DNA of 63,250 bases from Rhizaria sp. SCN 62-66 (taxonomy: Eukaryota). Positions within the stretch are counted from its first letter, which is position 1. Each line of letters opens with the position of its first letter. The notes below the pieces were generated by a model. It saw only the letters and a list, made by a program, of their open reading frames with translations. It had not been told where the DNA came from and searched no databases. Of this stretch, positions 20,589-58,200 are shown in pieces. A program made the position numbers and the translations under genes. Where the stretch lies: contig MEDY01000024.1 of assembly GCA_001724265.1 (NCBI GenBank), positions 62,001 to 125,250 of the forward strand, in the 5' to 3' direction.

Positions 20589-21137
20589 CGCAACGGAGGT
20601 AGAGGGGAGGCGACAGCAGCGGGGTGCGGTCGGGCTCGGGGAAGGGCTGGCTTTGGTGGGGTGAAGGGAGAAACGTGCCTCGAGGCTGGCTTGCTGCTTG
20701 AGGGAAAAGAAAGAGAATATGCAAAGGTGAATTAAAAATATAAAGAGTTTGTTGTGATTTAAATCTGGGGAGAAGCGGGCATATACACTGTCGGTCCCAT
20801 GATGGCGTGAGATACAATGAAAATTCAAAGAACATCACCTATCTCTCGGCCTCCAACGGCTCTCCACAGCAAACCATCTGTCTCAACACAAGATCAACCA
20901 CAAGACCATGCAATGATCTACAGAAGAGATAAATTTAGTGTATTTGTTATTTATGCGTTGTTTAATATAATATATCAAAGACCTGTCTCGTTTAACGATC
21001 GGAATATCGTGTAAGGCCTGTTTTACAATTATTCCTGCGCTGCGCGCTCACGTCTGCCCATTCCCGCACTTCCCCTGCTTCGCCAGGCCAGCAGTCTTGC
21101 TTTCTGTGCCACAAGCTCCCCGTGAGACTTAGCGCCG

Positions 21138-21236
21138 ATGGAGACGGAAGACCTGCGCACCCGCGCAGAGGTTCTCTCAACTCTCCACTCAATGCTACAG
21201 CCCACAGCTCCAAGCACAAGCACCGGTGCAACAGCA

Positions 21237-21269
<33 letters not shown>

Positions 21270-23858
21270 CAAATGAGCTCTGCTTCTGCCTCAGTCGCCG
21301 CTGCAGTTGCCAACAGCGACACCAGCGTTACGGACCCTGAGCAGCGCCGCTGCTTCGACTGCGGTGAAGTTAAACTGCGGCTTACCGCCGAGTTTTTCTC
21401 GTCATCGCAGCAGCGCAAGAAGCAGGGGCAGCGCCGGTGCGTGCAATGCGTCGCGGCGCGCCCGGTGTGCCATAACAACACCCCGCAGCCTGCTGCCTCT
21501 GCTGTCTCCAACACTCCAGCGCGCCAGAGCAGCAAAGCACCGCTCGCTCGCGCAACGGCAGCATCTTCGAACGTTACTAACAGTAATCCTGTTACTAGTA
21601 ACAGTCACCCCAACACAAGCAACGATGCCGACGCCAACGCAACTGGTGATACTGCGGGTACAAGCGCGGGTGATGCAGCCGTGAGTGAAAGCGCAAACGG
21701 TGTGACTGCACTAGGCCGCGCAGAGCTGCGCCGCGCTGAGCACAGTCGCCTTATCGAGGCAGTGCTGTTATACGCGTTCCCAGCGCTCACGGTCACCAAT
21801 CGCAGTGACCGTGGCCACAATGTGCGCACAGTCAGTGCCTCTGACGGCGGCGAGTGGTGCCCGTGGCTGCATACAGCTCTGGGGCAGGGCGCTGAGGTAC
21901 GTGACGCGATTGAGACTGTCCGGAAACGGGTTGAATTCGCGCAAAATCACACAGATAGCAACGACACTGCTGCTGTTGCTGCTGTTGCTGATGTAGCTGA
22001 CGCTCCGTTAAAGAGTGGCGAGAACTCGCTTGCGTGTCAGCTAGGTTTGTATCACACAAACGACGCTGCTTATCCTTTAGATGAACTCCCGCAACAGCCA
22101 CAGCCGCAATCGCATTCACACGCGTTGCTGCTGCCCGCGCCCGCGGAGAAGCTTCCGTTCCCGCTGTGGACTGACCCGGTCCGGTCCGGCGGCCTGCGGC
22201 CGGCGAAGGCCGTCAGGAAGCAACAGCAACAGGAGTCACTTTCCAGTCTTCTCTCCACAGTCACCCAGAACGTACTCCGCAGTGCCTGCCACACACAGCA
22301 AGCACCTTCACAGTCCGCAGATGCGCACCCAGCTCAGCGCTCTCCTCTACAATCAGCTGATAGTTTGACCACTGCAGCCCAGCACGCGAGACCGATGCAC
22401 GTTGTCGACTGCGGTTGCGCTACGGGCAATGCCGCGCTCGCACTCGCGCTGCACCACGTGCGGCTTAACTTCTCGCTCTTTGACGCGCACGCGCGCAGTG
22501 CGCAGATGTGCGCGGCGCGGCTGTGGGCGCACGAGCACTTGCAGGGGTACTTAAACGGATCTAAGGGTGGCCATGTCGATTGCGACAGTGTCGATACAGC
22601 TCGCGAAGCACTGAGCACATTCACGATGCCGTCACCCTCAAATGCGAGTGCGGATACGAACAAAAACAGCTGCGGTAACACTGCCAACGCGTGTGATACT
22701 GCCAGCAAAAGTAACATCGCTGCTCTCGGTTGTGGCGGCCGAGTGCGTGTGCATTGGGGCTCACTTCCCACTGAACGCATCGCAATCGCCACTGCTGCTA
22801 TTGCAACTGCTACTGACTCCTCTTCTGCTTCCACAGTCACTAGTAGTAATGAGCACACAAACAATAGTGCCGCCATGAGGGCTGTGGAGCCGATTGATGT
22901 CGTGATTGCAACGCACAGCTGCGGCGTTGCGACGGACTATGCGCTTTCTGTCGCTATCAGGGCGCGCGCGGCTGTTATACTGACGCCCTGTTGCAGCGGT
23001 AAGATGGCCACACAGCAACAAAAAGTCAACATCAACAACACTGACGCGAGCACAAACAGCAGTGAGAACAAAAACGACTGCAATGTTGCAAAAACCGCTG
23101 TGAACACGTCTGACAATGATGATTCGAACAAGAGCAGTGACTTTGGTTGCAACAGCGACTGTGTTGATGCTCACAGTCACTTCGGTTCCTCGTGGCTGAC
23201 TGACGGTGGCGCTGCCGCAGCTGTAGCGACCGTGGGCAGCGTGGGTTACCCGCGGTCACGCGCACTCGCGGCCGCACTGGCGCGCGCCTGTGACGTCCTT
23301 AAGAGCAACGACAACAACACTAGTGGCCAACAGCTTGCTGAAGATAGGGCTCGTGATGATACGACTGCACCCGTTGACGACAACGCTCACTGTGAGCAGG
23401 TCACGAAGCGCCCTCGTCTTCCTCACAACACGAATCCTTACCGCAGCAAGGGCGGCACAACCTCAGCGGCGACTGTGAGCTCTCTGTATGCCGTATTGGC
23501 GCGCTCGGCAGAAGCAACCGCTGTCGCGGCCAGTGCTGTTCCTGCCGCTTCCAGTGTTGCTCCTGCCGTTTCCAGCGCAAACGCAAACACAGTCAACGCC
23601 GCGGTCAACGCCACGCTCAACGCCACCACTGGCAGCTCTCGCAGTAGTAGCACCGGTCCGCAGCCACAGCCGCAGTCAGCGTCGTCTGCAGCGGCGTTCC
23701 ACGCGTTGAGTAAAACAGTGCTTGAGCTCGACCGAGTGGCGTGGGCGCGCGAAAACGGGTTTGCGGTGGTTTTGGCAAAGATGACACCGCTGGGAGCCAG
23801 TCGGAAGAATGATGTCATCATCGCCATCCCTCAAGAGCGATTAAACTTAAACAACTAA
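21138..23858 (+). CDS. GSTCD-like class I SAM-dependent methyltransferase with an N-terminal C4 zinc finger
   Basis: 906-aa ORF. AVRKQQQ, VVDCGCATGN, HSCGVATD, TPCCSG, YPRS, ELDR...AREN and RKNDVIIAIP follow the motif order of the GSTCD methyltransferase domain. N-terminal CFDC...FSSSQQRK...CVQC. Stop TAA. Confidence 0.82.
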
Positions 23859-24377
23859 GTGGCAGTAAGTGTCACGCTCATGAATGCTCCATAGTATCGA
23901 TAAATTTACATAGAGAAAGAACAATACACAATCAATAATATTGGATGACACGCGCCTGTGGAACTATTTACATCTATTTGTATTGAATCAGAACGTGCAT
24001 GAAAAAACAATCAACAACTAGAACAAGTTGTCGTACACAGTCACACACAGTTGTGATGCGCTTTTCTCATTATCATCGTCAGATCAGTTGGTTGTTGTCA
24101 GTCGGTCAGTCGGGGTCGGTTGGTCACAGGCATAAAATCTATATCTCTAAATGAGAGCCACAGTCGTATCAGTGGCGAGTAAATGCTATGAAAACGAACA
24201 AAAACACTCAAAAAAGCACACTTATCGTTACTTTTTAGCACACACACATCCGCAAGTCCAAGTCAATCGATCCAAGTCATGTCACTTAAAACCTTCTCAA
24301 CTCTGCTTGCTTGCTCGCGCTCCTCCGTTGTCGTGTAAGCAGGTAGGTCCTTCGAGAAAGGGTACTTCGTCACTTAC

Positions 24378-25606
24378 TTACTGGGTGGGGCACTGGGGCA
24401 TGTCGCCGCCCTTGTCGCCGCCGGCGCCGCCGGCGCCGCCGAGGCCAGAGAGCATGGCACGCAGCGCGTCCGCGTCGTCCTGCGACGACGAGGGCGCCTC
24501 GGTCATCATCTGGTCGAGCGCCTCACGGTGCTCCTCGGGGACGAGGTCGCGGGGCGGGGGGCCGAAGGTCTGGACCATGATCATGTTCTCCTGCACAGCC
24601 GCGTCGTCGACGGGGTCGGAGTCGAAGGCCGCGATGATCTTCTTGTAGCACTCAAACTGCTTGGCGTGCTTGTCGTGGGTCTCGTCGTCGATCTTGCCCT
24701 TGTTCTCCTCGAGCCAGGCGGGGAAGCGCGCGACGAGGTCGGCGATGGGGTCGTAGAGGTGCTCACGCGACATCATCTCCTGCATCATCTGCATCATCAT
24801 CTTCTGCATCATCTCGGGGTTGAACATCTCGCCGCCCTCGCCGCCCGCGCCGCCATTGAGGCCCATCGCGCCCAGCGACTCGGCCATCATCTTGGAGAAG
24901 GCGTCGGCGTCCATCTCAGCGCCGTCGTCGCCCTCGCCGTCGCCGTTGGCCTCAATGCCGTCGGTGTCGATCACGGAGTTCTTGATCATGCGCATCGCGG
25001 CCTCCATGGGGTCGAGGTTCGCGTCGTCGTCGTCGTCGTCGCCGGCGGCGAGACGGGACATCATGTCCTTGTCGTCAGTGTTGACCTCCTCTGTGGTGAG
25101 AAGCACAAAAGAAACAGGGAGAAGCAGCAGGCACGAGCAGAACGAAATAGAGAGACAGAGAGTAGAAATTGAGGATATGTGCGAAAGACAATTTGTGTGT
25201 TTGATATTTCAACTGATTTGCTGCGATTTGTGGTCACGATAAAGCTGTGGATCGCAAGAGACATTGGCGCGGCTCGCTTGGACAAGCTCCAAATGAACTT
25301 GCGGTGGAAAAGCTTGCGAGTGCGGAAGCGAGGCGAATGCGAAGGGGAAAGGATGCGTACCAGTCTTGTTGTCCTTGTCGTACTCCTCGAAGGCGTCTGT
25401 GTGTGAGTAGAGTGGAGTTAGATCAGGCAAAAGGCAGGGAAGTGGTGAGAAGTCGTGGCGGAGAAACGCGCAAAGGATGAGCCGGGTGGCGCAAGACAGA
25501 GCAAACGGAAAGAGCCATTGTGAAGATCAAAGACGACAACGATAGCCGGATAAAAATGAAAAAAGAAAGACGTACTGTCGATAATGTTGTCGATGTTTTT
25601 GTCCAT
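24378..25606 (-). CDS. PEX19: Peroxin 19 (PMP import receptor), 3 exons
   Basis: Exons 25576-25606, 25361-25396 and 24378-25090 give MDKNIDNIIDNAFEEY (PEX3-binding-like helix) ... MMSREHLYDPI...FPAWLEEN...MVQTFGPPPRDLV and a C-terminal CaaX box CPTQ. Stop TAA. Confidence 0.93.
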
Positions 25607-25960
25607 GTTGCTGAAGTGATCCCAAGCCGCACTGTGACTCTCGCGATCGTCGTCCCGCGACTGTCCGCTTCAACACTCTGCCAGTCGCCAACCAGCCCGA
25701 TCGGACCGAAAAAAAAAAGGCCAAATCATTTATCGTAGCAACAAAACCATGTTTTAAGTGCATAATTTCATAACTTTCTCGTCCATTAATGAAGTTCGGC
25801 CTGTTTATTGCTTCTGGAATACGAATATATACAAAATCGCGTCTCATGCGTCCAGATCGCCCCAAATATCTATACAAATCATCTTGAAAAATTATGCCAT
25901 CGCACACAGGTTACACACTTGTGTTGCGTTGTTTGTCGTACATAACCGACAGCCGTGAGC

Positions 25961-28900
25961 TTAGAGCCCCATAACTCCGGTCAAGTTGAGCCGCTGCTCG
26001 TCGCTCATGTTGTACGCCTCGGCCCACTGCAGCGCGAACGTGGCCACGAACTCTGGCTCTGTGCCGCACGCAAGCATCGAAGCCATGAGAGAACTTAACG
26101 ACGCAAAGGCGACATCGCGCTCGAGATACGTCGCAACCGCGGTGTTGCTGCTGTTGCTCTGACTCATGGCACTCGTGGTGGCAGAGGGCTCGGAGGCATC
26201 GCCGTCCTCACGTTCACTGTCACTCAGCTTCAAATCATGATTCTGACTCTGGCTCTTCTGGCTCTGGCTCTTGCTATTGATCTTACGCTGCTGCTGCAGC
26301 TGTGAGCCAAAGGGCACAGCGCCAGACTCCTGCAGCTGCAGCTCGGACTCGAACACGTTATCCAGCAGACACAGCTGCCAGAACCTCTCCAGTGACCACA
26401 ATGGGTGGTTTCGCAGTGCTTCGATGAGGTATAGCTTGCCCCCACTGGCCGCTGCGGCCTTGGCAGCCGCGGCAGATGCGACGGCAGCCGACTGCGACTG
26501 TGCGCTCGTAACTGCAGCGTTAGAGGGAGCAATGCCGTCGGCGTCGTCGAGGTCGAGATCGATGTTGTCGGTGGTAGTGGCACTACCCTGACTACTCTTG
26601 CTCGTAGCGTTAGCGGTGCTGTTGGAGAGAGTGCGTGAGCGCTGGTCGTAGTCCTCCCAAGTTAAGCCGTCAGCGATGAGTGAAGTCGCGTCCAGCCCTT
26701 CCTCAGCCCCACCAGCAACACCGCTCAACGCGTGCGCGACACTCGAGAGCAGATTTCCATTGCCGCCGCTGTTCGCGCTGCTGTTTGGACTGGTTTCGCA
26801 CCGGATCGTCAGCGCAAGCATGATCACACTCTGCGCAGGCCGGACGTCAACCATGTTCACGCTGCCGCCACCGCTCGCGTTGCCGGGGCCGCCGACGAGA
26901 GAGCTGAGGCCGAGACTACTCAGAACGCCGCCGCTGTTATGGCCTAACACGGTCGCAGCTGACACCGCGCTACCGCCGTTGTTAGCGCGCGACTTGATGG
27001 CGGAGCGGGCAGACGACTGCGGAAAAGCCGCGGCGGAAGTGATCTCGGCAAAGCACTGGTCGAGGCAGCGGCGCGACAGGGCACAGAGGTTACGGTACGC
27101 GGGCGCAGAAACCTGGTTTTTTCAGTGTAAATGAAACAATTGAAAGGATATATCGCGTTGTAGATGAGTTAAAAATAAATATAGTGATTAAATGCTCAAT
27201 TAAAATATTTAAGGAAAATAAATTGGCTTTAAAAGTCGGTATATAGCGTTAACTCTATGTTTGGTGAACAGGCGTACCTTAGTGACGCGGCCGTTACGCA
27301 TACTGTTGAGCACGTTCACAAACGCAAGCCTGCCGGCCGCCGTTGCGCACAGTGCTGTGCAGAGGTCCAGCAGGTCAGAGTCGAGACGCGGGGGCCGGCT
27401 CAGCCACGCCTGGGACTGAGCCTGTGCCACGGCAGCGGTCGCGGCAGCGGTCGTCGCGGCAGCCGCGGCGGTCGCGGCGGCTGAGTCAGAGATCGATGCA
27501 TCGTCTGAGATCGAGCCAGCTGTTGTCGCCGCGGCGAGGGTGCATGTGGCCTGATAGAGGCCTTTCACGCCCACGGCGGCGTCGAGCAGAGCGCCCAGTT
27601 GGGCTGAGGCGGAGGCCACAACGGCGGCGGGCGGAGGCGGCGGCCTAAGTTCGGTGACAGCAACAAAAGAACAAAATTGAACACATATCGGCATTAGTAA
27701 AGTATGACATCTAAAAACTAATAAAGATAGTTACAACGTATAGTCTACTTAATAAAATATAATGACTCGATGTTAATAACAGAAATTTAAGTGGGTTAGA
27801 TATGTCCGTACCTCTTGACGAGTCCATGCATCCTCGAAGCCCCGCTGTCAGTGTTGCTGCCACCGCCAGTCGTCGCATTGCTGACCGATGCGATTTGCTT
27901 CTGGATGTCCGACGCAGCCGCAGAGGCCGCCGTCGTCGCCGCGGTAACGGCAGCAGCGACGGCGCTTGTGGCAGCAGCCGAGAACGACTGAAGCTTATTC
28001 TCCCATCCGTTATTGTTGCTATTGCTGTTAGTAGAGTTGTTGGGGCAACCACTCTATGTGCTACTTACCCCGCTGGCAGCCCCCTTAGGCCCCGCGCCTG
28101 CACTAGCAGCAGCAGCAGCAGCAGCGCCAGTGTTGCCGCCGTGGTGACCAGCGCCCACTTTCTGGCTCTTGTTGGCGTCATCCGCGATAACGGCGGCCTC
28201 AGCGGTCTCCACGACAAGCCGCTCCGTCTCCAGCAGCAGCGCGGTCACGCCGCCCACGGTCACCGCGGTCGCGCCTGTTGTGCCGGCAGTCGCGGCCGCG
28301 GTCTCAGAGCCGCTGCCACTGCCACCGCCGCCGCTCGATCCGGCGGCGCTCACATGGGACAACGAGTCCCCCGCGACAGCGCTGCTTGAAGAGCTCGTGC
28401 TCAGCAATTCGAGCGGAATAGTGCTGCTGCTGAGCCCCAGGCAGTGCGTCGGCGCGACGCCGCCGGTCAGAATCACCTCGCACGCCTCCGCCGCAGCGCC
28501 CGACAGCGCCGCACTAAAGCCCCCGCTCCCCGCGTTGCCATAGCCGCCTACACCAGCGCCAGCGCCAGCGCCAGAGCCAGAGCCGGAGCCGGACTCGGCA
28601 GCAAGCGCGGCGGCCACCGCGGAGGTCGCAGCTGCGGTCGCCCCAGACTGCGTCTCCCCGCGCAACAGCAGATACCGGGCCCCGCCGGCGCCGAACCGGC
28701 GCTCTTTGACCGGGGGCGGCGCGGGCGCGGAGGAGAAGAAGGAGGAAAAAGACGAAAACACGCTCGTCACGGCGGCCGTCGCGGCCTCGGCGGCGGACTG
28801 AGCGGCGGTGGTTTCCTCCGCGAGGGCCTGGGCACGCGCGGCACGGCGCGCTGCAACCCGGCGCGCCTTGGCCTCGGCCTTCGCAACAGCAGCAGCAGCA

Positions 28901-30500
28901 GCACTGGAACTGGCAGCGGCGGCGGCGTTACCGTTACCGTCAAGGTCGAGAGCGTTGGGTTCGTTGTTGGTGATGTTGTCGTCGTTGTCGGTGGTTTCGT
29001 CGCCGTCGCAACTGGGATCCGCGTCGCAGTAGTCAATGTCGTCCTCCAGATCGCTCAGCCCGCCGCTGCTGCCACCGCCGCCACCGCCAGCAGCAGCGCC
29101 GTGGCCCGCCGCCGCCCCTCCGGCGCGCGCCGCGGCTGCGCGGGCCGCAGCGGCGGCGGCGGCGGCGACTGCGTGGACTGTGTAGAGCGTGGCTGGGTGG
29201 AACGGAGACGCCTGGTACTGCGGCGCGGGGGCCGAAGCGGCGCGCACGGCGGCCGCAGCGGCCACCACGGCCGCGGGGGCGTTGGGCGCCGTAGCCGCGG
29301 CGGCGTCGGCGGCGGCGCGCGCGGCGAGCGAGCGTGCGAGCGCCATGACGTCGCTTTGGGGGCTCGCAGAGTCTGCGAAACCGGCCGGGAGGGACCAGGC
29401 TGCGGCCAGATTAGTCGCGGTCGCGGCGTGGTGCGCGGAGTAGCGCGCGCAGATGTCGGTGAGGGCGCGGAGACGGGTTGTCTCGGCGGCGTGGAGGGAT
29501 GTCAGCGTGGTGTAGGAGCGGGACTCGAGCGACGCGTGCGCAGACTGGGCCACGAACACGGCCTAGAAAAATTAAAAAAATATCACACACAAGGAAAATA
29601 GGAACAATAAGAAATAAAAATATTTGATAATTCTAGAAAATAGCGTCATCCATAATATACTTCAAGTATAACTCCGTTAACTATGATTAACCTAGTCAAA
29701 ATCAGAAGATACAAAAATAGAAAGATATTATTGTGCTCGTTTACTTCTGCTCGTTTACTTCGTACCTGTAGGTAGGCCGCGTCCCTGCGCAGTGCCGTCT
29801 TGGTGAGCTCCACCGCGTTTGCCTTAAGCTCCGCAATGGCGCCCTCGGCGGGCATAAGCGCCTTGCACACGCGGCGCACGTCGCGCGCGTCCCTGTCTGC
29901 GACGCGGCCCTGTTGCGCGCTGGCGGCGGCGGCGCGGGCCAACGCAAGACACACGCGCTCACGGTGCTGCGCGACGGCGAGCCGCTCACGCGCGTGCTTC
30001 GCGGAGGCCATCGCGGCTGTTACGCGCGCCTCGTGCGTCGCCACGGCCGCCAGTGCGGTCTGCAGCGCCGACAGAGTGCGGCTGTAGTCGGACCAGAGTG
30101 CGTCGGCGGTGGCGGAAGCTTTCGCGTGTAGCTCACTGAGCTCGGCAGCAAACTGCGTCTGCAGCGACTGGGAGGAGCCCGCGGCAAGTGCGGCCGACGC
30201 GGAGGTCTGCTCGTACACGGAGGATAGCAGGGCCGTTACTGACGCGTCGGGCGCGCGCGTCGCGGCGGGGAAGTTGTAGGCCGTGCATAGCTTCTTGAGC
30301 GACGACGCGTACGCCTGCTCGATCGCTGCCTGCTCTGTGACGAACGTGCGAAGAGTGGAGATGGAGCGCAAGCCATCGCGGATAACTTGAAAGGCACCAA
30401 TAACGTTGCCCTTGACAGCGGCAGCGAAGATACCCGCGGCGTCAGTCTCCGTCGGCATCTGGGAAGAAGCAGACGTGGGCAAGGGGGGCGACGAGGACAT
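25961..30500 (-). CDS. F-BAR/FCH-like N-terminus + C-terminal SBF1/SBF2-like helical domain, about 1334 aa, 4 exons, one in-frame TAG at 28054-28056
   Basis: Exons 29766-30500, 27812-29562, 27278-27644 and 25961-27112. FVTEQAAIEQAYASSLKKL is FCH-like. AFVNVLNSMR...LYLIEALRNHPLWSLERFW...FASLSSLMASM is SBF2-like. Splice phases only work if exon 2 is read through the TAG. Final stop TAA. Confidence 0.75.
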
Positions 30501-30908
30501 GGTAGTCTATCTACCGCCACAGCGCGTCTAAAGAAGACTTGGAAAGCTGCAAAATAAAGAAAGTATACAAAATCATATCAGCCTTATCATATCATCTTTT
30601 CTGTTCGACCTATCGATCTGCTATAGAGAACAAGTTGTGTATAGTTAGGCCCCCTTTGGACTGACGTCAGAAGATGCATTCGTGGCCCTGTCCGGTCGAT
30701 GCAAAGGGGACACACACTGTGCAACATGATCTGTTCGAGTTGCTCCTGGTATGAAACCGTACTCACTCGGTGCAATTTTTCACATTTAAATAGTTCCCTT
30801 CTTTGCACTTCGTCAACTTAAACAAATCACAGTAAATCAACAATAACCGTGAGATATCCTTCGGTCGCACTCGTGCACTTCGCCGCGAGTCAAAAACTGT
30901 CCAGTTGT

Positions 30909-32837
30909 TCAAAGATTCGAGGGCGTGTCCTTGCCACCGGCCGTCTTGAGCGCACCGGACAGGTACGTCGTGCTAGACATCTCGACAAGGCGGGAGATGG
31001 CACGCGCCGATGCGAATACTTCGTCCTCCTTGAAGCCCTTCTTGTTGCCGCCAGTGGCCTCCAGCTCAGCAGTTGCCTCAGCGGCAGTCTTGTGCTAAAA
31101 AGAACATAAAACATCAAAGAGTAAAAGAAATTAGTTAGTATAGTATAAAGATAAACAAAATGCATATACTATCCGAAATTCAACTTGATGCCTAAAAATA
31201 AAGCAGAGATATCACAGAGTAAAGTGAACATATGAACAACTCTCACATTGTCGCATCGTCGCATCGTAACGGACCTCAATCTTAGCGTCGGCACTGGCAT
31301 CCGCGCCACCCGCGCTCGCCGTGCTGTTCTCGGCCATGGTATCGCGCGCGGGCCGGAACAGGTCGCTGGGCGGCGCCTCCGCGGAGATGAACAGCTTGGT
31401 CCTGTGCTCATACAGCACGTCAAGCAGCGTGATGAACCGGCGGATCACTTCGCGCCGGTCAAAGTACAGCAGAGGGACGTCGGTGACGATGACGCAGGGG
31501 AACGCCTTGGCGACGGCGTAGTAGTCGGCCGCGCCCAGGGGCCGCGCGCAGAGCTCGTCGAAGGTGAATCGCGCGACACGATGCGGCACCGCGTGCGCTG
31601 CGGTGAGCGTACGACCCATCATGACCTCCACGGTGACCGCGCGGGCCTCGCCGCCGCCGGCGAGCTTGGCGAAGATGTGGTCGATGTTGGCGGCCGTAGC
31701 CGGGGAGAGCGGGGAGTGGTACACGCCTTCCTCGGTGGTCACAAGTAACCGGTAGTCGGACATGTGTTCCATGGGTACCACCTCGGTGTTGCGCTCCAGG
31801 ATGCCGATGAACGGCAGGAACACGTCGCGGTTCAGTCCGTTGAGGTACAGATCGCGCGGCGGGCGGTTACTCGTCGCGACGACAACGCATCCATTAGCGA
31901 ACAAGTGTGTGAACAGCTCCTTCAAGATCATCGCATCGGCAACATCGGTCACCTGGAACTCGTCCAAGCAGAGCACGCGGCCCTCTTTGGCGACGAACTC
32001 GCGCGCGATCACGGCCAGCGGGTCCGTGACCTTGTTCTGCGCCGGCGACTGGCGCAGCTTGTGCAGACGCTGGTGCACTTCGAGCATGAACGAGTGGAAA
32101 TGCTTGCGGACTTTGGGGATTGTGTTGGGGACAGTGTCAAAAAACATGTCCATCATCATCGTCTTGCCGCAGCCAACGCCGCCGTAGATGTACAGACCGC
32201 GCGGCGTGCCGGGCGCGGGCTCAGCAACCGCGGGCGCGGCCGAGCTGGAGCTCGAGCTCGAACTGTCTCCATTGCTGTTGTTGTTATTGCCGAAGAAGCT
32301 CTTGAGGCCGAAGAATGACGACGACGACGCCTCCTTGGGCTTAGCCGCGGCCGGCGCAGGCGCGGGGGCCGCAGCGGCTACGGGGGGCAGCGGGTGCATC
32401 GTGAGCGCGTCCCACAGGTTCTGCAGGCGCTCGATGGTATTACGCTGGCGCGGGTCCTCCTTGAGGTCGCCGGAGGCTAGGGCGCGCTCGTACGCGGTCT
32501 CGGGGTCCTCGGCCGCGGGCCGCACGGCGGGCGCGGGGGCAGAGGAGAAGGCGCGCACAGAGCGCAGAGTGACGGGCGTCATGGGGGTCAGGGCAAGAGT
32601 TGCGGAGATAGAAGGGAAAGAAGGGGCGGCAAAGAAAGCTGGCTGCTGCTGCTGCTGCTGCTGCTGCTGCGAAGACTGAATGCGGTGACGCGAGGTAGCA
32701 TCTCCCCAGGAGGTCATCGTGGTGGTAGAAAACTGTGTAGGTGCGGTGACTGATGCGGCAACAGAACGTGCGCTGCAGGTGATGAGCGAAGCGCGGGAGG
32801 CCGTGTTGCGGATCAGCAACGACGACAGCGACGCCAT
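30909..32837 (-). CDS. AFG1: AFG1/LACE1 (ZapE family) mitochondrial ATPase, 582 aa, 2 exons
   Basis: Exons 31275-32837 and 30909-31094. Arg/Ser-rich presequence, GLYIYGGVGCGKTMMMDMF (Walker A), HFHSFM, LCLDEFQVTDVADA (Walker B), TSNRPP, RRFITLLDVLY and FASARAISRLVEM. Stop TGA. Confidence 0.95.
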
Positions 32838-34152
32838 CTGGAAGAGTGTCACGAACACCGCGAAACGGTCAGCAAATTATTGAACTCAAAGTGAGCGCTT
32901 AAAATATATAATTTTAAAAACAATATAAATTTTCAACACACTCATGGAACTGCTATTGCACAGCTAGAAACTGGTATAAATCTGCATGAAAGTTGAGCTA
33001 GGATGACGCGGACCTCCTCGTCGCCACCCACCATAGAGCCACAAAACAACTTTTCTTCACTCATAGTGCACAAAGCGCAGGTGTATACAAGCGACCAGAG
33101 CTAATTCTCGTTTATGTGAGTTATACCTAGATAATGTCTCTGATCTCCGTTAAAATAAACTTAAAGCTGATTATACCTTTGAGAAAACCTTACTTTTGGA
33201 CACAAACCCACCACAAACGGACGTTCAAAGAACGCTATTCGCGCTTCAGCTGCATCAAGATCAACCACAACAGAGACGGCTCGGTAGGAAAATGTGTCTC
33301 TAATGCCGCGTTTTTTTACTGCCTATGCAACCTCGTTGGCAGCCAATGTCATCCTGCGCTAACGGAGAGGCCTCTCCATAACGCGTCTGCAGTATCTGGA
33401 CCCAAGCGGGCGCGGTCGAGACCGTTCATGAACGGTGCGGCGCTAAGGTGACAAACCAATGCTGGAAAAAGAAAAAAGGTAGTGGAGATGATGCAGAGAT
33501 GCATGGTGATCTCGCACGCGGAAAGCAGCTCTTGAAGTGTTAAGCGAGTTCAGGACAGTTGGCAGAAATGTCGGCACGACACGAAGAGATGTGACGGTTC
33601 GCAATAATATGGTAATAAAGTAGACATTTAGAACGCATTGATGTCACTTTTTACTTTTGCCGTGATTGAGACTTGAAAGATGTGCAGACATGAGTAGTGC
33701 ACGGACGTCAGACCTGCTTGATGACTGAGCATCAAGTGACCGTGAGCAACAAGCAGGCCAGTTCAGCTATTAATTTTGACAGAGATAGAAAACAAAACGC
33801 GTGTTGATAGTGTGTATGTGGGGCTGTTTGTCAAATATGTTGTCTCATCTTTCTTTTGGTATGACTTTAGAGCTGCCGCAACACGATATAGCGTGACAGC
33901 AACTTGAAAAATATTATTTCGAAGTATATAATTGACCGAAACATGATCCAAGTGAAAATAAACGTGCGCAATATGATGTCCATCTGTGTTAGAAACCAAT
34001 TTATGTTGTTTTCTTTGTTTCGGTAAGATTTTAAGTTGCTTGTGCAGGAACTAAAACGTAACAATGCAGAGGGCACGAGTGGGACGGGGGAACGAAGGGC
34101 GCTCACGAGGCAACAAGAAACAGGGATAGATCTCGTTTAACCAACGCACAAC

Positions 34153-37100
34153 ATGGCTCGCTTTAAACTATTAGAGACATTTGGACGTTACGTCCAAAAG
34201 AAGCTGACGTATATCCTTGCAGTTCTTGCGGCGCTGGTGCTTGTCGCCACGGTTGTCATGGTGGTCGTGATCATGGCAACGGCTCCAAGCAGCGGAGGTG
34301 TCAACGGAGCTAGCGTCGCATCATCGCCTCCACCGTTGATTGCCAACAGCGCAGTACTGCCAGCCTCTGCAATCCCGCACCGCGTAGTGTTTCCGAAGCT
34401 AGAAAGGTTCGTTTTATCTTGCGTGACGTTGTTAAACTGTTCACTTGCTCTCCGCCCACTTTCAGGTCGTTGTCAGTGCACTTTTCTGTTCATGCCTCAC
34501 TTGAACAATGAGTTTCCTTCTTTGACGCTTTTATCATTTGCTGTGCTGTATTTAGTTCAAGCTCGAAAACCGAGTTGTTTCCGTCTCGTGTCACGCTCGC
34601 GCTCACTACCGGCGCCGTAAACTACACCCTTGATCTCGATCGTTCTAACTTCTTATCCAAGCAATACCAGCACTCAACGTACGTCGTAACGCAACTTTAA
34701 AGATATGTCCTTATGGTTACAGCTGCTTCATCTATTTATGCTGCTGAATTGTGCGTCTCATTTTGTTCTGCGATGATTTTGCCTCTATATCTGTCTTTGA
34801 TCGCAGTATCACTCCCGGCCCTGACGGACGCCTGCGCTATGCCGCCGCATCGGTGTTGCCCCATATCGACTGCTACTACCGCGGCCGCGTGCGCGGCGAT
34901 TCCACGTCACTAGTTGCTGTCGATTTCTGCGACGGCTTCCTGCGCGGCAGCGTAATCACCTCACAAGGCGCGTTTTCACTGGGTTCGTACTCAAACTTCC
35001 TCGATGAGACTAACACGCCCATTGCGCGCGTCTCACCTGTCACCGGCAACAGCGGCGCTGGCGCTGGCGCTGGCGGCGTTGTTGTCACGCCGACCGAGGA
35101 GTCCGTTGCCGCCGCGCTGGCAAACAGTGCGACGTATGCCACTTCTGGCGCCGCCGCAGCCGCGTCCGCCGCTCTCGCCGCTGCCGATGCAGCAGACTCT
35201 GCCTCTGCTCGCCGTAGTCGCCTCACCAGTCCTAACAACGGCCGTGGGCACAGCAAGGAGCCCTGGGACTTGCCCGGCGCCCACATCGGCCGCCAGTCAG
35301 ACACGCCGGTAGTGATCCGCTCTGCCAAGGACTGGGAGCGGCAACGGAGGCGGCTTAGCTTTGGGCTCGACCGCAGTCCCTCGCTCCTCGACCGCGAGCA
35401 GGACGCCGCTGCGGACGCAACGTATTTGGCGGAGGGTGAGAAGTTAAGCCGCGCGCCGCGCACCTCTGCAATCACCAGCACTGACGCTGAGAGCGCTGTA
35501 AGTAGCCGCCGCAGTCTGCTCAGTAGCAGTCTGCTTGCAAACGAAGGGGGTCCTGGGATGGCGGTAGTCGAGCTGCCCACAATACCCGGCACTAACGCTA
35601 ATGTAAACGCAAACGCAAACAGAAACACTGGCAGTACACCGGGAGTTAGAGCCCGGCGCGGTGTCGCAGCGTCTCTGTTGTCGCAGCCACACGTGATCAC
35701 TGACGCTGCCGCTGAGCTCAGTGCGTTGCGCAAGCTTGGCCTTGCGGGCAACTGCGGGCGTACAGTGCTACGGCAGCAACTTGAGCAGAAAAAGCATCTC
35801 GAAGCACTTCAACGTGGGAAGAACAGTAAGCGCAAGAACGTCGCGGGTTTCAAGTCCAAGAGTCTGCCGGACGGCCTAAGTGAGATGAAGTCTAAAGGTG
35901 CTGTGATGCGGCCTGAGCTCGGTGAGACAGAGGCAAAGATGCGAGAAAAGAAGAAAGCCGATAAGCTGCGTGAAATCGCACTTACGCGCACTGCTCTGCT
36001 CGCCTTGGCTGAAGCTAAGAAAATAGCTTTAGAGGAGCGTAACGAAGACAGCGGTGATATGACGAGTCTGAACCCACGCTTCGTTAATGTTAACATTCAT
36101 AATCGCGGCACAAGTGCTGACATTAACAGCAGCAATCGTGTTTCTTCTTCGAGCTACAACAGTACGACTCCTGTGCCGACAGGCAGCTTCACTCCACCGG
36201 GCGGCTTTACAACGACATCTGAGAGCGACCAGTGGGAGGACGGCAGTGCGAGCGAAAAAGCGCTTGCGCAGCTGCACAGCGACATCAAGGAGTACAGCTC
36301 TTTGTTGCCGCCGCACCTGATGAAGGCGCTGAAGAAGTTGAATCGTGACAATAACATCATCACACGAGGTGGCCTCGGTCTGCGCTACTTAGACAACAAG
36401 AACGACAATGACAGCAGCAACGCAGCTAAGGGTGCGGCTATGCTTATGTCACAGGATGACTGGCTTGCGCGCATGGGTCTGCCTAGCAGCTTAACTTCGA
36501 ACAAAGACGACGACGAGCTTCGGAGTGCGGCGGCGACCGAGGCTGAGCTCGAGTCAGATGCTGAAGCGGATGCAGAGGCCGATGCTGAGGCTGAGAAGGC
36601 CGCAGTGGCTGAGGCTGAGGCTAACGACGCCGCAATCACTGCGCGTGCAGAGCGTGACTTGGCGCTGCTCGAGCGGTTTCCCGGTCTGTTCACGTCGCCG
36701 ACGCCGCGCTTCGGCGCATCCACACCGGCCATAGCGAGCGCGGGACCAGGGCCGGTGCCGGTGACGACGGCTGAGGCTGCGCGTGCCGCCAGTGGCCGCG
36801 GTCGCGGTGAGGACGACGACACCAGTGATCGTGAGTTTGGTCGCACCAGTGATGGTGAGCGGCGCAGTCGGAAAAAGCCTGCAGCCACTGCTGCGATCGA
36901 ACAAGCGCCGCGCTACATTGAACTCATCATCTTTAACGATGCTGCCCGCTCTGCGTACGCCTTCGCATTCTATCATCATTTACGCTGTGTTTGTTATCTT
37001 CTTTAACAAATTTGATGATTTTTAGCTTGAAATAACAGTTCATACTCACGATCCCCTGAATCACTTACTTTGTTTTTGTGTTTACACTGATAGGGCTCGC

Positions 37101-40100: not shown

Positions 40101-40361
40101 GCGGGTGCGGGTGCAAGTGCGGGCAGCGGCCACAGGCGCACGGCGTCCAGTGTGTACCAGTTTCCTCTGCCTGGCGACGGCGACGGTGGCGAGAAGATCA
40201 ACGCGGCAAGCGCGAACAACAGCAGCGACAACGCAAACGAGAACATGAAGACTGAGAACACCAACAGCAACACGAGCTATGCGAGTAGCAGCTGCAGTGA
40301 AAGCAGCAAGAGTCAGAAGGGTAAGATCTTGTCTGGCCACCAAGACGAAAACCGACACTAA
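34153..40361 (+). CDS. Reprolysin/ADAM-like (M12B) membrane zinc metalloprotease, about 1930 aa, 4 exons
   Basis: Exons 34153-34406, 34556-34678, 34807-36954 and 37094-40361. N-terminal hydrophobic segment; prodomain DCYYRGRVRGDSTSLVAVDFCDGFLRG; RYIELIIFND; GLATVGTVC; HEMGHNLGMDHD zinc motif; Met-turn VMQP; WSQCS; second TM helix near 38185-38260. Stop TAA. Confidence 0.88.
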
Positions 40362-41808
40362 GTTGTGTTGTATCACGAGAGCGCAATACGCTCTGTGATC
40401 AGGTGACCACACGCAATGGGTGTTGCGCGACTGTGCAGTGTAACAAGCAAGATTGAATTCAGTGTGAACTTGAATTTAAGAATGTGAATGAGACATTTGA
40501 TCCCCAATGAGTAACAATCAGAATCCCAAACACTAGTAACATGAGAACAAGCAACAATACAATGCAAAACCAGAATACGCAACACACTTCGGCAGTGACT
40601 ATGAAAAGTTGATGTATTGTGAGCTGCAACGACTACGGCTTTTTGATATTAATTTGGTGTTATAAAATATGGTATACGGAATAAAACGCGTGAGAAAAGA
40701 TCCATAAAAGAAAAAGAGAAATAAAAGAAAAGATCGAAGAAAGTGACGAAGGAAGAAAAAAAAGAGTGACGAGGTACAGCCAAAGCAAAACGTGAGTCTT
40801 TGCAATCACAACGTGTGTGTAACAAGCAAATGATCATGCGGTGCGCTAGATATACCAAGCGAAACAACATATTGATGTTATTAGATAAAAATCACAGCAG
40901 ATATACTGCCAATGCACTGCTAGCGTTAGTAACAACGATGAGCGTTGCATAGAGCAAGTACATTGCAAGACTTTGAAAAGAACTCGAATCATAGCAGTCC
41001 GTTGCTGTCATTGTTGGAGAGATAATAACTCTGAAATAGTCACTGTTTGTTGATTTTGAAACACTGTGTTGTCGCTTGCACGCAGATTTCACAGTGCAGT
41101 GCAACGACAACAAACTAGACGTGTTAGAACACAACAAACAGTAACATGTCAAGTGAAACAGCTACCATTACAACAACTTCAACTATCTTTGTCCGGACGC
41201 AAATACTACTGAAACAGCATAAGCAGAAAAGTAAGACGAAGACAGTGACAGTGCGCACTTATAGAAACCCCATGGAAACGCAAGAGTATAGACGTTAGTG
41301 CTTATAGAATAGTAAGAACAAAGGTGTACAAATGTACATGTACAAGAACACAATAACACAAATGCTCAAAAAGTGTTCTTAGATTCACTATATTCTTTAA
41401 AGTTGAAACCTCAGTGTGGTGGCAGGGAATAATTTCCTCCAGCTTAATAAAGACAAATGTCTATGTGCAATCAACGACAGCGCAACTCGTGTGCGTGCAA
41501 GTACACTGATGTCTTGCTCCTAGTGCGACGAGTCAAGGGGCTAAACCTCAACATCGCCAAGCAAGGTACAAGCATCAGCAGTATCACAGCAGCGAAACGA
41601 ACGCAAAGCGCGCCAATGCAAACATAGACATTCATCGCCCAAACACTTAAAGACTAGCAACTACTACTACATAGCAGTCATGACAGTACTCCTACGACTT
41701 TAGTAAGAACTCTTAACACGCTTACACGCAGACATGCGCACACACGCACGCACGCAAATACGCACGCACGCGCCGCATCGCGGCTTGGTCGTGATTGAGT
41801 CGTGTCGC

Positions 41809-52264: not shown

Positions 52265-55200
52265 ATGTTGTCAATGCTCACAACACAAACGTTGTGTGCA
52301 CCCTCCTCGCTTCGTGGATCCTCGTCCACGGGGCTCGCGCCCGTCTCAGGACGAGCCAGGCTCTTGAGCTTCTGCATCTTCGCCCTGCTCTCGCTGCTCT
52401 TCGTCACCGCAGCTGCTGTAGACGTCACCCAGAACGTTGAGTTTACGATGGATCTCACATCCAACGGCCTTATCTTTCGTGCCACGCCTGACCCTAAAAC
52501 CGGCTCTTTATCCACCACGGACAAGTTCTACATCCGCGTCACTGACAACTTGTCCTACGTCAAGCAATGCGCTGCTTACCAAGGAAGCACCGTTGTCGTC
52601 ACTCCGGACACGACGGGTGCAAAGTACGCTATCTCTCGCAAGTCTAGCGCTCCTAAGAACCAGGCTCTCGCCGTTCTGTGCAACTACGTCCCGAATACGT
52701 ACACCTCGTTGGACGACTTTCGGCTCTTTATTGCTCACAACTCTTCCGACATCGAAGTTGTGCGCTTCAACGACCTCTCGCGTCCTGACGGCATCACTTT
52801 CTCGAAGCAGGGTCCGCTCCTTACGTTCCTCTCCGATGACAATTCCAACGACTTGCGTGGTGTTCCTGTCATCGATTTCGCTGCTCCAGCTCTTGAGCAC
52901 ACCGCGGATGCGACCTATCACCTCGTCTGTGATAACACTCAACTCGAGGAAGTTGTGACCATGCACGGGGACGGCACCACTTCGCGCCAGGCTCTCAGGC
53001 TCAACATGTGGGCGGAGAGCGGCTCTTTGTTTCGCATCAGTGTGTCTTTGAGTCACGCTGACAAAGGTCTTGCCCTGCTCTATAGCTCTGACAGCATCAC
53101 ACGATGCAAAATTCACGATGCCAACAATATCGCGAAAACGGCATTAACTTCAATCCCGGCCATTACTAACTCACCAACTTTTGATGTGTTAGTGCACCAC
53201 AGTAAGGGTGAGTCAAGCGCCACCGTCAAGATCACGCCCAACTACGGATCGAACTACCCGTTTCTGAGTCAGCGTGACACGTTTAAGGCTGACGGCCTCG
53301 AGGGATGCGTGGCAACCCCCAACGAGTCATCCGAGTCTGCTGACACCGGTGCGTTTTTTTCCGTGGACCGCGCGCCTGAGAGTTTTTCGTTTCAGTGCTC
53401 GACTCCTGTCACCATGGCGGATGTCAAGATTGTAGCCACCATTGGTGGCTCCAGTCCTGTAGAGTACCCAATTGGTACTCTCATCGCGCCGGTGAGTGTG
53501 CTCGCTCAGTACAAGGCCGAAAACGCGGTTGTCAGCCTGCTCAGCACCGGTGGTGACGCGCTGACTTTGCCCAGTGACAAATTCACCACGGGTGAGTCGA
53601 TTCTGATCTGTGACGCTAAAATCACGCACTATGCGAATGGGACTGACTCGACTTATGCCAGCGTTTCAAAGCTGACCGCGTGGAACGATCTTCTGTTTAA
53701 GGTGGGCTTTTATTACCATAAGATTACTTTAGGCAGTTCAAACCGCCTGATGCTGGCAATGCGCAGTTTTGGTAGTAAAGTTTCATGCATGCTGTTTGAC
53801 AGCACCTATGTCTCGCCACTCAATTCGTTCCAAATCAACACAGTTCCCATTTACGCAGACATCACTGTGACGCCTGACCATGACTCTTACGAGCTCAAGG
53901 TTAAGCTTGAGGGACCGATTATTTCTCTCAATACCACCGACATACTTAAGCTCTCGTACGGCAACGATGTTCCTCCTACTTGTACCGATACCAGCTCATC
54001 CGTCTCGGTGACCGACGGCAACATCTCCCCTCTCGTCAGTGGTGACCAGACAGCCATCTGGACCTTGACTTGCACCTACGACACCTCTTACTCTGACCTC
54101 AACAGCCTCACTCTCACTATGGTGATTGCGGGAGACACGTTAGGCCCGTACACCCTTGCATTGACGAAGTCTGAAACTGGTTTTTCTTTCCGCGCGCTCC
54201 CTCTGGCCGCGTTCGAAGCTTAGAATTTGGAGGATATCGAAAACGCTCATGGACTCACAGGAATCACCCATCGTTTTTGGCACGATAATATCGTGAGTCT
54301 TGTTTGCTCAGGTCCTGTTGATGACGTCTTACTCACTACGGGCACAACATACCAATATACGCGGATCCCGACACCAAAAACCGTGTGGACTCATAACGAC
54401 CTTAAGACTGAGTTCTATTATACGTTTGCTGAAAATCTTCCGGAAGACTGCAAGCGCATTGCCGCTCTATACCACAAGTCCGTCTCCAGTGACCCAGAGA
54501 TCAGGTGCGGCTTGCGCCTCGAGAACACTCCGGCCATCTTCACTGAGCTCGCTGAACTCCCGCCGTTCGAACGCGATGTCGAAAAAATCAACGTGCTCAT
54601 GAAGCGCTATGTGCTTAATGGAATCTAGAAAATTGACATCTCTGTGGCAATTATCGACGAACATTTTGTGTTTATTAGCGGTTACGACAAATTCTCTATT
54701 GGGGGCATCACTACTAGCAACTGCGAGACATCCACTGCGGCGGGTTTAGTGAGCGGTGAGGCGACATCTTTCACGTCTTTGACAGCGAAAACGAGTGTCG
54801 TACATGTGACCTGCGAGGCGACAGGGCTCACGTCCGCCCTCACTTTCAGAACAACTATCAATGGTATCACCGAAGTATATTCAGCTGGCGCATCAACCGC
54901 CTTTATGCGCGTGCTTGTGATCGATAACATCGTTCCAGTTACGCTCGACATCCGGAAAGTCAACGCCACCAGTGACGTCAAATATATTTTGTTGCCTGAA
55001 GCCCTTCAAAATTCTGACGTGACTCTGGTCTGTAACGCTGCTATTGACTACTATAGCTTTGTTAATACCGTTCCTGGGCCTGAGGTTAGCAACGAGGTTA
55101 GCAACTCAAACATGCAAAATTTCTCTATTTCTGGCATTCGACACTGGTCGTACAATATTAATATTTCACAAAAAACTGGACTGGTGCTTCTGACCCGCGC

Positions 55201-58200
55201 TGCTCCCTCTTGCAACTTATATGGTCCAAGCGGTGTTTCACTTTATGCTACTTTTGAGGTGCCCGTGTTGCCCCTAGAGGCTGACGTGACCATGTTGCCA
55301 TGGCGAGAAGGTAATAACCTCACTTTGACTGTCACCTTCATTGGCGAGTTCAAACGTATGTGGGTTGGCGACTATATCATATTTAACTCGGTTATTACTG
55401 GCTGTATTCGGGATAACAATCTGGTTTAGCCCGTTGCTTCTAACAAGCTTGTTCCCAGTAGCTTTAGTTCACCGCAAAGCGCGTTTACTGTCAACTGTAC
55501 CATCCCCTCACTCGCTTCCCTCAATTCGTTGGAGATGACGGTGGTACTTGGTGGTACTTCAATTACAAAGGTATTGAGTCATAGCAAGTCTACAACTGAC
55601 GGACTATCGTTCCGCTCTCTGCCCATGGAGGCGCTCACTTACAGTTTTTCCGGTATTACAGGAATCGAGGCCATGTCGGCTGAATCTGAGGGTATGTTCG
55701 CTTCTGGCTCGGCAGTGCTTCGTTGCGACAGCCCAAATATTGATGAAGTCATTATGATGCAGTCGGATAACAATCATCAGTATTATTTTCCTTCCTGGAT
55801 CGACAATGTAACCACGCTACCTGTGAGGCCTAATTTACTCGATAAAGTCGCCTTGTTGCACCGTCCCGCGGCTGCAAGTAACGAGGTTAAGTGTTCACTT
55901 GCTCATAGCTCTAGCAATCATTTCTACACGAAGGAAATTATTGTTCCTGCTGTGACAAACGATCTGGACCCCGTCCTGGATGTGCTTATTACCCGCGACA
56001 AAAACGCAATGAAGACCACAATTGTCATCGAATCGATTGGCACCGTTACCTTCTTTAGCAAAAACGATAATATGACGCTTTCTGGCATCAGCCTTAGCAA
56101 CTGCTTGTCAAGTGACGCTACTGTAACGAAAAAGGATGCCACCTCGCATCAATTTTCCCCCAATACGCCCAGGACCTCCACCATTACCGTGACGTGCAAC
56201 TCTGTCGATACTGAGTACAGCACCGCCCTGACGTTTTGGACAAATTTTAACGGCAATGTTAAGTCCTACGCTGCTGGCACAGTGTCCAGCGCCGCGCGCG
56301 TGCGCGTGGTTGACAATGCTGGAAATTACAACTTCAGGCCTCTTGAAGGTGGCGTCCAGGCTCTAGATCTTGATCCCCGCTTTGCTACGAGTAATTCCAT
56401 GCTGGTGTGCAGCAGTCCCATTGATTTCGTTAGTCTTGTTTCTAATAACATTCCGTTGAATCCTTTCCCGCTTACAGGCTGGACCTCGTTCAACACTAAG
56501 TGGCACAGGACGCTCGATCTGACGAGTGCGACTGGACTTGTGTTCATTAGTCGTGCGGGTCAGACCTGCGAGTTATATGACAGCATCGGTGCGACAACGT
56601 TGTCATCTTTCACTGTGCCCGTGCTGCCCCACGAGGCCGAGGTAACTGTCTTACCTACGCGCAACGGAACTAAGGTCACGATCAATCTTGCTTTCAAAGG
56701 CTCTTTCAAGTATATGTCAACCTCCGACTCGTTCAATTTCACCGACACCGTTAGTGGATGTGAGGGGGTTTCTGGCAACCTTGGGGTGACGGCCGGCTCC
56801 GGCACCGTTTCTCTTACAACCTCCAGTAACGCTGTGAACCTGGATGACTTTACCATGAGTTGCGCTCTCACCTCAATTGCTTCTCTTAATGCGCTCACGA
56901 TGCGAGTGGTCTTTGACGGCGCGACTAAGAGCAGTACAATTCTGGGTTATGAGAATGGAGGTGTATTGTCGTTCTACTCCGTCCCCATGGATGCGCTGTC
57001 TTACTCTTCTTCTGGTGTGATTGACGGTGTCAGTGCCATGGCAACGGACACTCCTTCCTCTGGAAAGGAGGGGATGTTTAAGGCCGGCCGCGCCGTTCTT
57101 CGCTGTGATAGTGACAGTATTGAAGAGGTTGTGCTGATCGAGTCTTCTAGCTTCATAAGTCGCAATACTGTAACTTCCTGGGCGCTTATTTCCGGTAAGA
57201 ACGAGACCACGCTGCCTGTTGTCTCCAATAGTTACACCAAAGTCGCTCTGCTGTACCGTACTAAAAAATCGATGGACGCCGTGTCTTGTTCGCTCTACCA
57301 CGCAGATAGCAAACATTTCTACACTAACGCCATCGAAGTTCCCAGGATCACGAGCGACCCCAAATTGAACGTACTCGTTACCCGCACTAGCGCTGGGACC
57401 ACGATCTCTATTAACTCAGTCGATGATTTCCCATTCTTTAGCGCTCACGACAATCTGACGATGTCTAACATTAACCTGAGCAACTGTGTGTCGTCTGACG
57501 CCACTGTGGAGACAAATGGCGATGCCTCACATAGTTTTTTCCCCACGAGTCGCAGCAGCTCCAGCATTACAGTGCAGTGCGACGTTGGCCCGGACTACGT
57601 TAACACCATGTCTTTTTGGACAAATTTCAACGGTCTCGAGCTCAAGGAGTACCCCGCTGGCACATTTTCTCCTGTGCGCGTACTCGTGTCCGACAACGCC
57701 GCCACCTCGCCACTAACGACCCTTGCTGACAGCACCCAAGCCTTCCCGCTAACATCACGCTTTACCACTGGCACGAGCACTCTTGTCTGCGCTGCGCAGG
57801 TTCTCAATGTCGCGCTGATTTTCAGCAACGGTACGGCCATCACTGTCAGTATGGAATCTTGGACCCAGGATACTGGATTCAGCGCCGACTATTATCACGC
57901 GCTGTCAACCGGCTCCGCAATTGCTCTCGCAATGCCGGTTCGCGATGCGAGTGCGACGTGCACGCTGTACGACCCCCAGGGTGCCACGCCCTTCGCCGCG
58001 GTAACATTGCCCGGTGTCCCGCTTTCTGTCGATGTGACTGTAGCGTCCACGGATGAAGGTGTCACTATCACCTTTACCCCGTCCGGCGTGATGAAGCTGC
58101 TTCTTAGTACTGACAAGTTCACTTTTTCCGATACCGTTGTCGAGAACTGCGAGGCCGTCACTAACGCGGTCGTCACCGGCGCTGATGCTAAGATTGAACA

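Follow-up and report, generated by a model that had tools for sequence, protein, structure and literature searches.

Does the TAG codon at positions 28054–28056 of the DNA analysed here end the protein whose reading frame it interrupts, or is it translated? The stretch in question, called the window below, comprises 63,250 bases (57% G+C) of contig MEDY01000024.1, deposited under Rhizaria sp. SCN 62-66, and carries eukaryotic genes with spliceosomal introns. The TAG appears to lie inside exon 2 of a single minus-strand gene, whose product would begin with an FCH/F-BAR domain, continue through a long stretch of low complexity and end in a region with a lead to SBF2. From the sequence, the codon is probably retained in the messenger RNA (mRNA) and decoded as an amino acid, and a sense meaning of UAG is its best explanation. 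This reading is favoured because the flanks of the TAG are coding-like in a single frame, no start codon follows closely downstream, no intron that obeys the rules of this genome covers the codon, three more in-frame TAGs occur in the window and no assignable gene ends in TAG.

The minus strand reads ...GCT GCC AGC GGG GTA AGT AGC ACA TAG AGT GGT TGC CCC AAC... at this place. A 502-residue open reading frame (ORF; 28054–29562) ends there in ...GAASGVSST and is followed in the same frame by an 85-residue ORF (27796–28053; SGCPNNSTNSNSNNNGWENKLQSF...HGLVKR...). Beyond the TAG the frame runs for 80 codons and 2 nucleotides (nt) to a GTACGG donor, whose first G is at 27811; splicing to the acceptor AG at 27646–27645 joins AG to G, giving an AGG codon, and continues with PPPPPAAVV... 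in the frame of the next ORF. The resulting four-exon model (Table 1) comprises 4,005 nt and 1,334 codons, with the TAG as its sole internal stop. An earlier note on this stretch, made from its letters, had placed an in-frame TAG after ASGVSST and a GTAAGT at 28068, and had described about 80 coding-like codons reaching the GTACGG in phase 2, to match the acceptor at 27645; the minus-strand sequence and its ORFs bear out both descriptions. The same note had labelled the gene F-BAR/SBF2-like, and here only the first half of the label stands. Residues 40–103 of exon 1 match the Pfam family FCH (PF00611) with an E value of 3.6e-08 and 34.1 bits, above the gathering cut-off of 27.8, and a Pfam search of the C-terminal exons gave no match to SBF2 (PF12335) even at E values up to 10. 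An Atlas feature search of these exons returned SBF2 with a score of 0.91, the three highest-ranking clusters having this family in 12–17% of their members, and a structural match in Atlas had a TM of 0.37; for the C-terminal region, the SBF2-like label is no more than a lead.

The TAG is a genuine base triplet and no assembly error, because identical DNA is found in two other assemblies. One of them, in a separate study, has a DNA contig (X3, record 2) that spans 23121–29208 with no differences, and a contig from a metagenome of the JGI collection (L001) matches 25329–29208 with a single mismatch in 3,880 bases, at 25675; both carry the same TAG.

The sequence on either side of the codon looks translated. 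With a codon-usage model trained without the F-BAR gene and without the giant gene described below, the 100 codons leading up to the GTAAGT (28068, four codons upstream of the TAG) score 0.39 per codon, compared with −0.47 and −0.54 in the other sense frames. The 22 codons directly after the TAG score 0.72 (other frames, −0.48 and −0.40), the 58 codons that follow these score 0.30, and the entire stretch of 80 codons scores 0.41, its other frames giving −0.64 and −0.27. For reference, the mean is 0.33 per codon in exon windows and −0.03 in 84 intron windows, the highest of which reaches 0.50. Since no ATG occurs within 74 codons downstream of the TAG, this coding stretch can be reached only from upstream.

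Nineteen introns could be defined in the window. Two introns of Pex19 are seen spliced in contigs of complementary DNA (cDNA), two of CRM1 are confirmed by gap-free alignment to seven homologues, and the remaining ones were placed where coding frames could be linked over AT-rich gaps, one of them with the help of a motif that we take to be that of prolyl-tRNA synthetase (ProRS). Seventeen start with GTACG and two with GTCCG, so that C at +4 and G at +5 are found in all 19; their lengths range from 134 to 270 nt and their GC contents from 0.27 to 0.49, with roughly 60–70% GC in the surrounding exons according to a coarse local-window reading. The near-invariant 5' splice site, (A/C)AG followed by GTACG (n = 17) or a site with GTCCG (n = 2), is unusual, and neither GTAAGT nor GTGAGT begins any of the 19 introns. 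It suggests that U1/U6 pairing follows other preferences in this lineage; we found no report of a GTACG consensus donor in a protist in the literature, a search that is not proof of absence. No in-frame GTACG..AG pair surrounds any of the four in-frame TAGs of the window. A screen that admitted any GT as donor returned eight GTACG introns and only one row with GTAAG, which is 28068 itself; its other rows were alternative GTs within defined introns, one GTCCG intron and, in the giant gene, two pairs with a GTTCG donor.

The three other in-frame TAGs lie in a plus-strand gene for a giant secreted repeat protein, which continues past the end of the window. They link segments of 655, 134, 266 and 2,607 codons, and neither TAA nor TGA occurs in these 3,665 codons. 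Alignments between paralogous repeats continue across all three TAGs, at columns that are variable in the paralogues and in distant homologues (P0124, P0126, P0127), with Y/S, M/T/A and V/E as residues. Gln, which the earlier note had named from the Ser/Thr/Asn surroundings of the F-BAR TAG as an example of a suitable polar residue, would be a guess; these alignments point to no single amino acid. ORFs that end at these codons are found in other collections as well: at the first TAG in Logan and ENA (P0122, P0136), at the second in ENA and JGI (P0123, P0137, P0138) and at the third in JGI, where P0125 differs by one residue.

A scan of the window for stop codons with 40 open codons on either side gave 55 TAG, 59 TAA and 141 TGA. 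Apart from one TGA that is an antisense artefact, the stops flanked by coding-like sequence in both directions were all TAG, with none of the 59 TAA among them; the bit scores in Table 1 can be compared with a mean of 14.2 bits for true exon windows and a 95th percentile of 5.9 for off-frame windows. Further apparent in-frame TAGs were set aside: those at 42352 and 44130 belong to the acceptors of CRM1 introns, the one at 3923 comes shortly before a start codon, and those at 37023 and 12103 fall within AT-rich intron-like sequence. TAG closes six coding-like ORFs, namely the four in-frame cases and two that run antisense to other genes. Eleven gene ends could be assigned, and nine of them are TAA, two TGA and none TAG. 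If TAG usually ended 20–30% of genes, a usage that we assumed, the absence of TAG ends would have p ~0.02–0.09. TAA is thus strongly preferred as terminator (9/11), although the coding sequence is GC-rich.

Several observations weigh against a sense UAG, and some of them would allow splicing to remove the codon. The segment 28068–27988 starts with GTAAGT, the textbook donor, has a GC content of 0.43 and holds the sequence TACTAAC at 28033–28027; the fall in GC content from 0.70–0.77 to 0.37–0.50 takes place exactly across it. Downstream of GTAAGT, the acceptors TAG at 28054, GAG at 28000, AAG at 27994 and CAG at 27988 would define in-frame introns of 15, 69, 75 and 81 nt, all multiples of three that leave the joined frames open, and the 81-nt candidate was returned by the any-GT screen. 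Excision of the TAG with one of these short introns, which would leave the code standard at this locus, seems to us quite improbable. Like a retained in-frame intron or micro-intron that carries a stop, the segment runs from GT to AG over a multiple of three nucleotides; its donor, length and codon score break the rules of the 19 defined introns. These all have GT(A/C)CG, mostly after AG, and never A at +4, whereas the GTAAGT follows GGG; the shortest of them measures 134 nt, compared with 15–81 nt for the candidates; and the in-frame score of the 81-nt segment, 0.56 per codon, exceeds that of every intron window, and its scores in the other frames are negative. The dip in GC content needs no intron, because Asn/Ser-rich runs of the same codons are found in confirmed exons, for example in AFG1. 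In CRM1, the alignment to homologues revealed no hidden short insertions, except for one of 7 residues, and a short intron in the F-BAR gene would leave the three TAGs of the giant gene unexplained. The GTAAGT at 28068–28063 most likely simply encodes Val-Ser. Two acceptors beyond the TACTAAC, at 28025 and 28019, would give introns of 44 and 50 nt and were rejected, as the frame shifts into stops. The earlier note had weighed only the 15-nt intron and the far acceptor. Splicing from 28068 to 27645 does shift the frame as it had stated (424 nt, remainder 1), into 50 Arg-rich codons and then a TGA three codons on, as read from the sequence; the in-frame introns of 69, 75 and 81 nt, which we find unlikely, had been overlooked. 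In the giant gene, GTTCG..AG pairs enclose the first TAG (donor at 54211, 294 nt) and the second (donor at 54565, 114 nt). We discounted both, since the donor is unlike that of all 19 introns, 114 nt is below the shortest of them, and paralogous repeat alignments cross both TAGs. The RNA check made use of contigs of a polyA run (X7), two cDNA runs (X5 and X6) and the DNA run X3 over 21000–40900, a stretch that ends before the giant gene. Among the pieces listed, beyond which there were a further 146 joints and 4,182 pieces, no RNA contig bridges 28054, and no joint is listed at 28068 or at 27811/27645. RNA contigs of the polyA and cDNA runs do cover other parts of the gene (26537–26811, 27308–27630 and 28607–28920), the exon 3 stretch 27308–27630 being covered by a polyA-RNA contig (X7, record 28). 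A (GCT)n run encoding poly-Ala lies at 28091–28135 on the minus strand, just upstream of the TAG, and Logan contigs of the RNA run break there; because of these breaks, the RNA contig data cannot bridge the TAG.

Other unfavourable observations concern termination. The standard code predicts a true stop, by which either the F-BAR protein would end at codon 747 and a separate gene would follow, or the TAG would be a recent nonsense allele with an intact remnant behind it; we consider this unlikely. An ATG is present at 27831–27829, just before the donor. We know of no protein that joins F-BAR to an SBF2-like region, and protein searches found no orthologue with this fused architecture. Queries of 231 and 121 residues around the TAG had no match, the longer one being flooded by low-complexity words, and the F-BAR query from exon 1 found no related locus in JGI metagenomes; a query with the TAG region found one related contig, which belongs to essentially the same strain and consists of unspliced DNA, and is therefore evolutionarily uninformative. 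The compared assemblies are nearly clonal, at 1 mismatch in 3,880 bases, which leaves room for a recent mutation. TAG is also the commonest product of random nonsense mutation at the codon usage found here (0.58–0.62 of new stops, and 0.45 in the N-terminal part of the giant protein), so that the finding of TAG at all four sites has by itself only p ~0.05. A true stop would, however, leave 74 codons between the TAG and the ATG that are coding-like in the upstream frame only, as well as GC contents of 0.67–0.80 across 27990–27930, compared with 0.27–0.49 in the defined introns. It would demand four nonsense events in two genes with no TAA, no TGA and no frameshift in an ORF of 3,665 codons, and elsewhere in the window TAG never serves as a gene end. 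Decay is opposed more strongly by the giant gene, which is free of frameshifts and other stops and whose TAGs persist in other assemblies, including that of a variant strain. Still further from what we would expect is editing of the UAG in RNA, or a low level of context-dependent readthrough without reassignment, which we regard as scarcely probable at all. Nothing specific speaks for it, and the small number of TAGs would fit a leaky stop tolerated in poorly expressed genes. No differing letter is listed at 28054–28056 in the RNA runs, where coverage was not established. Three successive leaky stops would leave almost no full-length giant protein, yet 3,009 codons downstream of them stay open. 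At three of the four sites the TAG is followed by A; programmed readthrough would be expected to show a leaky context, and this is not one. Sense UAG has its own weak points. Only four TAGs in two genes stand against 14,304 codons counted in long ORFs, and scans of the 63-kb window found no tRNA gene and no Rfam match. Since the conserved genes CRM1, UBA1, AFG1 and Pex19 have no in-frame TAG, no conserved column supports decoding or names the residue. The TAG of the F-BAR gene had been put forward in the earlier note as independent evidence for a sense UAG. That it is inside translated sequence is what the data favour; its independence is limited, as it shares a contig with the other TAGs and their being all TAG is a weak argument.

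Under the reading that we prefer, UAG would be kept in the mature mRNA and then read as an amino acid. The nuclear code of this GC-rich wastewater eukaryote would use UAG as a rare sense codon and terminate with UAA, the preferred stop, and UGA; the likely means would be a transfer RNA (tRNA) with a CUA anticodon together with a release factor eRF1 that no longer recognises UAG. Near-identical DNA is contained in bioreactor and wastewater metagenomes of several studies. The chances seem to us about even that UAG alone has been reassigned in this organism, which would be an uncultured, aerobic and GC-rich eukaryote of wastewater whose close relatives have not been sequenced; this would be a further independent origin of the uncoupling of UAG from UAA, side by side with the unusual GT(A/C)CG donor. 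The sparing use of UAG (4 versus 14,304 codons) could mean that codon capture is at an early or weakly used stage. A GC-rich contig of this length with many genes and introns of 134–270 nt seems unlike ciliate macronuclear DNA, and the presence of Pex19 and of a mitochondrial-type AFG1 would argue against an anaerobic fornicate like Iotanema.

UAG-only reassignment itself is already known in other lineages. Rhizaria sp. exLh, in which UAG encodes Leu, and Iotanema spirale, in which it encodes Gln, have reassigned UAG in the nuclear code and kept UAA as a stop (PMC5304391). The window resembles them in that UAG appears to be sense and UAA and UGA stops, and UAG is scarce in I. spirale too; the reassignments in exLh and Iotanema were established from many UAGs at conserved columns and a likelihood test (PMC5304391), whereas here there are four UAGs at non-conserved positions. 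In phyllopharyngean ciliates UAG has been reassigned and UAA is the fixed preferred stop (PMC11687900), as TAA is preferred here with nine of 11 gene ends; suppressor tRNAs were found in these ciliates (PMC11687900), and the window holds no tRNA gene. The oligohymenophorean ciliate PL0344 likewise has uncoupled meanings of UAA and UAG, which encode different amino acids (PMC10553269), but UAA is also a sense codon there and not, as here, the end of nine genes out of 11. Compared with the known UAG-only cases, the present genome is GC-rich, intron-bearing and of aerobic type, it has far fewer UAGs, and the case for it is made from sequence. We found no report in the literature of a wastewater eukaryote with a UAG-only code, which is a statement about our search and not proof of absence. 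Few codes give UAG and UAA differing meanings, namely those of exLh, Iotanema and some ciliates (PMC5304391, PMC11687900, PMC10553269). If the reading holds, very low UAG use in a lineage of which no relative has been cultured or sequenced would be a data point on the onset of stop-codon capture. Annotation under the standard code would then truncate genes of this organism, and in public protein collections the giant gene is already broken up into entries of 649, 133/81 and 56 residues. ORFs identical to these giant-gene pieces of the window are also found on contigs as long as 132 kb in public assemblies. Should the TAG instead be spliced out or terminal, the finding would be ordinary.

Table 1. 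Positions of the TAG codons, of the F-BAR gene model, of other genes and introns and of gene ends in the window, with scores of the stop-codon scan (bits for the two sides).
Feature	Position	Strand	Remarks
In-frame TAG	28054..28056	-	codon 748 of the four-exon model; read as 28056-28054
GTAAGT, look-alike of a canonical donor	28063..28068	-	A at +4 in 0/19 defined introns
Exon 1	29766..30500	-	ATG to ...AAYLQ; FCH/F-BAR domain; donor GTACGA after CAG, at 29765
Intron 1	29563..29765	-	203 nt, GTACGA...TAG, GC 0.27
Exon 2	27812..29562	-	583 codons + 2 nt, Ala/Ser/Gly-rich, includes the TAG
Intron 2	27645..27811	-	167 nt, GTACGG...TTAG, GC 0.30, phase 2
Exon 3	27278..27644	-	122 codons + 1 nt
Intron 3	27113..27277	-	165 nt, GTACGC...CCAG, GC 0.29
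Exon 4	25961..27112	-	383 codons + TAA stop (25961-25963)
Stop scan, TAG 28054			11.7 / 21.2 bits
Stop scan, TAG 54626			13.4 / 18.2 bits
Stop scan, TAG 55427			16.0 / 14.3 bits
Stop scan, TAG 54221			15.3 / 4.1 bits
Stop scan, best TAA			5.2 / 6.5 bits
Stop scan, best TGA			9.6 / 10.2 bits; antisense to a UBA1 exon
Giant secreted repeat protein gene	52256-63250, continues past window end	+	>3,665 codons
Giant-gene TAG no. 1	54221..54223	+	ORFs ending there also in Logan, ENA (P0122, P0136)
Giant-gene TAG no. 2	54626..54628	+	ORFs ending there also in ENA, JGI (P0123, P0137, P0138)
Giant-gene TAG no. 3	55427..55429	+	P0125 (JGI) ends there, one residue differs
Intron donors, examples	48212, 48719, 49331	+	
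Intron donors, examples	44285, 42521, 29765, 27811, 27277, 25575, 25360, 31274, 2268	-	
AFG1-like gene, last intron	31274-31095	-	180 nt, GTCCGT...TTTAG
CRM1	41809-45758	-	~1,080 residues
TAA gene ends	8625, 10384, 16332, 23856, 24378, 25961, 40359, ~41809, 51470		

Besides the FCH/F-BAR protein, the genes of the window encode Pex19, an AFG1-like ATPase, CRM1/exportin-1, a UBA1-like E1 enzyme, a RING/CHY protein, a kinase and a reprolysin-like protease. The closest CRM1 to that of the window is an ENA protein with 57.5% identity. Sequences from Amoebozoa (Balamuthia, Cavostelium, Protostelium) and from Chlorarachnion are 42–45% identical to it, the rhizarian Chlorarachnion having 44.8%, and those of plants reach the same 42–45% in local alignments. 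The top-scoring match is a EukProt entry under a jellyfish data set (Rhopilema esculentum), with 748 bits and only 40% local identity. A short insertion (LIDDQEND...) is common to the CRM1 of the window and to the metagenome proteins P0003 and P0004; this sequence feature suggests a small clade of uncultured relatives.

In the AFG1-like gene, a TGA at 31212 is not the end of the gene; the final exon, which follows the last intron, encodes ...EDEVFASARAISRLVEMSS... and terminates with a TGA at 30909–30911. An exon pair resembling class II aminoacyl-tRNA synthetases lies at 2000–2330 on the minus strand and is interrupted by a 184-nt GTCCGT intron; its motif is the one that we presume to be of the ProRS type.

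The giant protein has a signal-like hydrophobic stretch at its N-terminus and, judging by the spacing of matches, repeats of ~430–470 residues. Its distant homologues in ENA and JGI (26–33% identity) have a Cys-rich stalk and a C-terminal membrane anchor (P0124, P0134), and the giant protein probably represents a surface protein family of this lineage. One ENA relative is a single ORF of 2,506 residues in one assembly and is split on a single 11.4-kb contig in another. P0135 has ...KYT as its last residues, at a point where P0134 continues with Ser, and ~52 residues further on the following ORF takes over; the relative may have an in-frame stop at this break, which we mention only as a lead. 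Other breaks among these relatives (P0132–P0135) resemble frameshifts.

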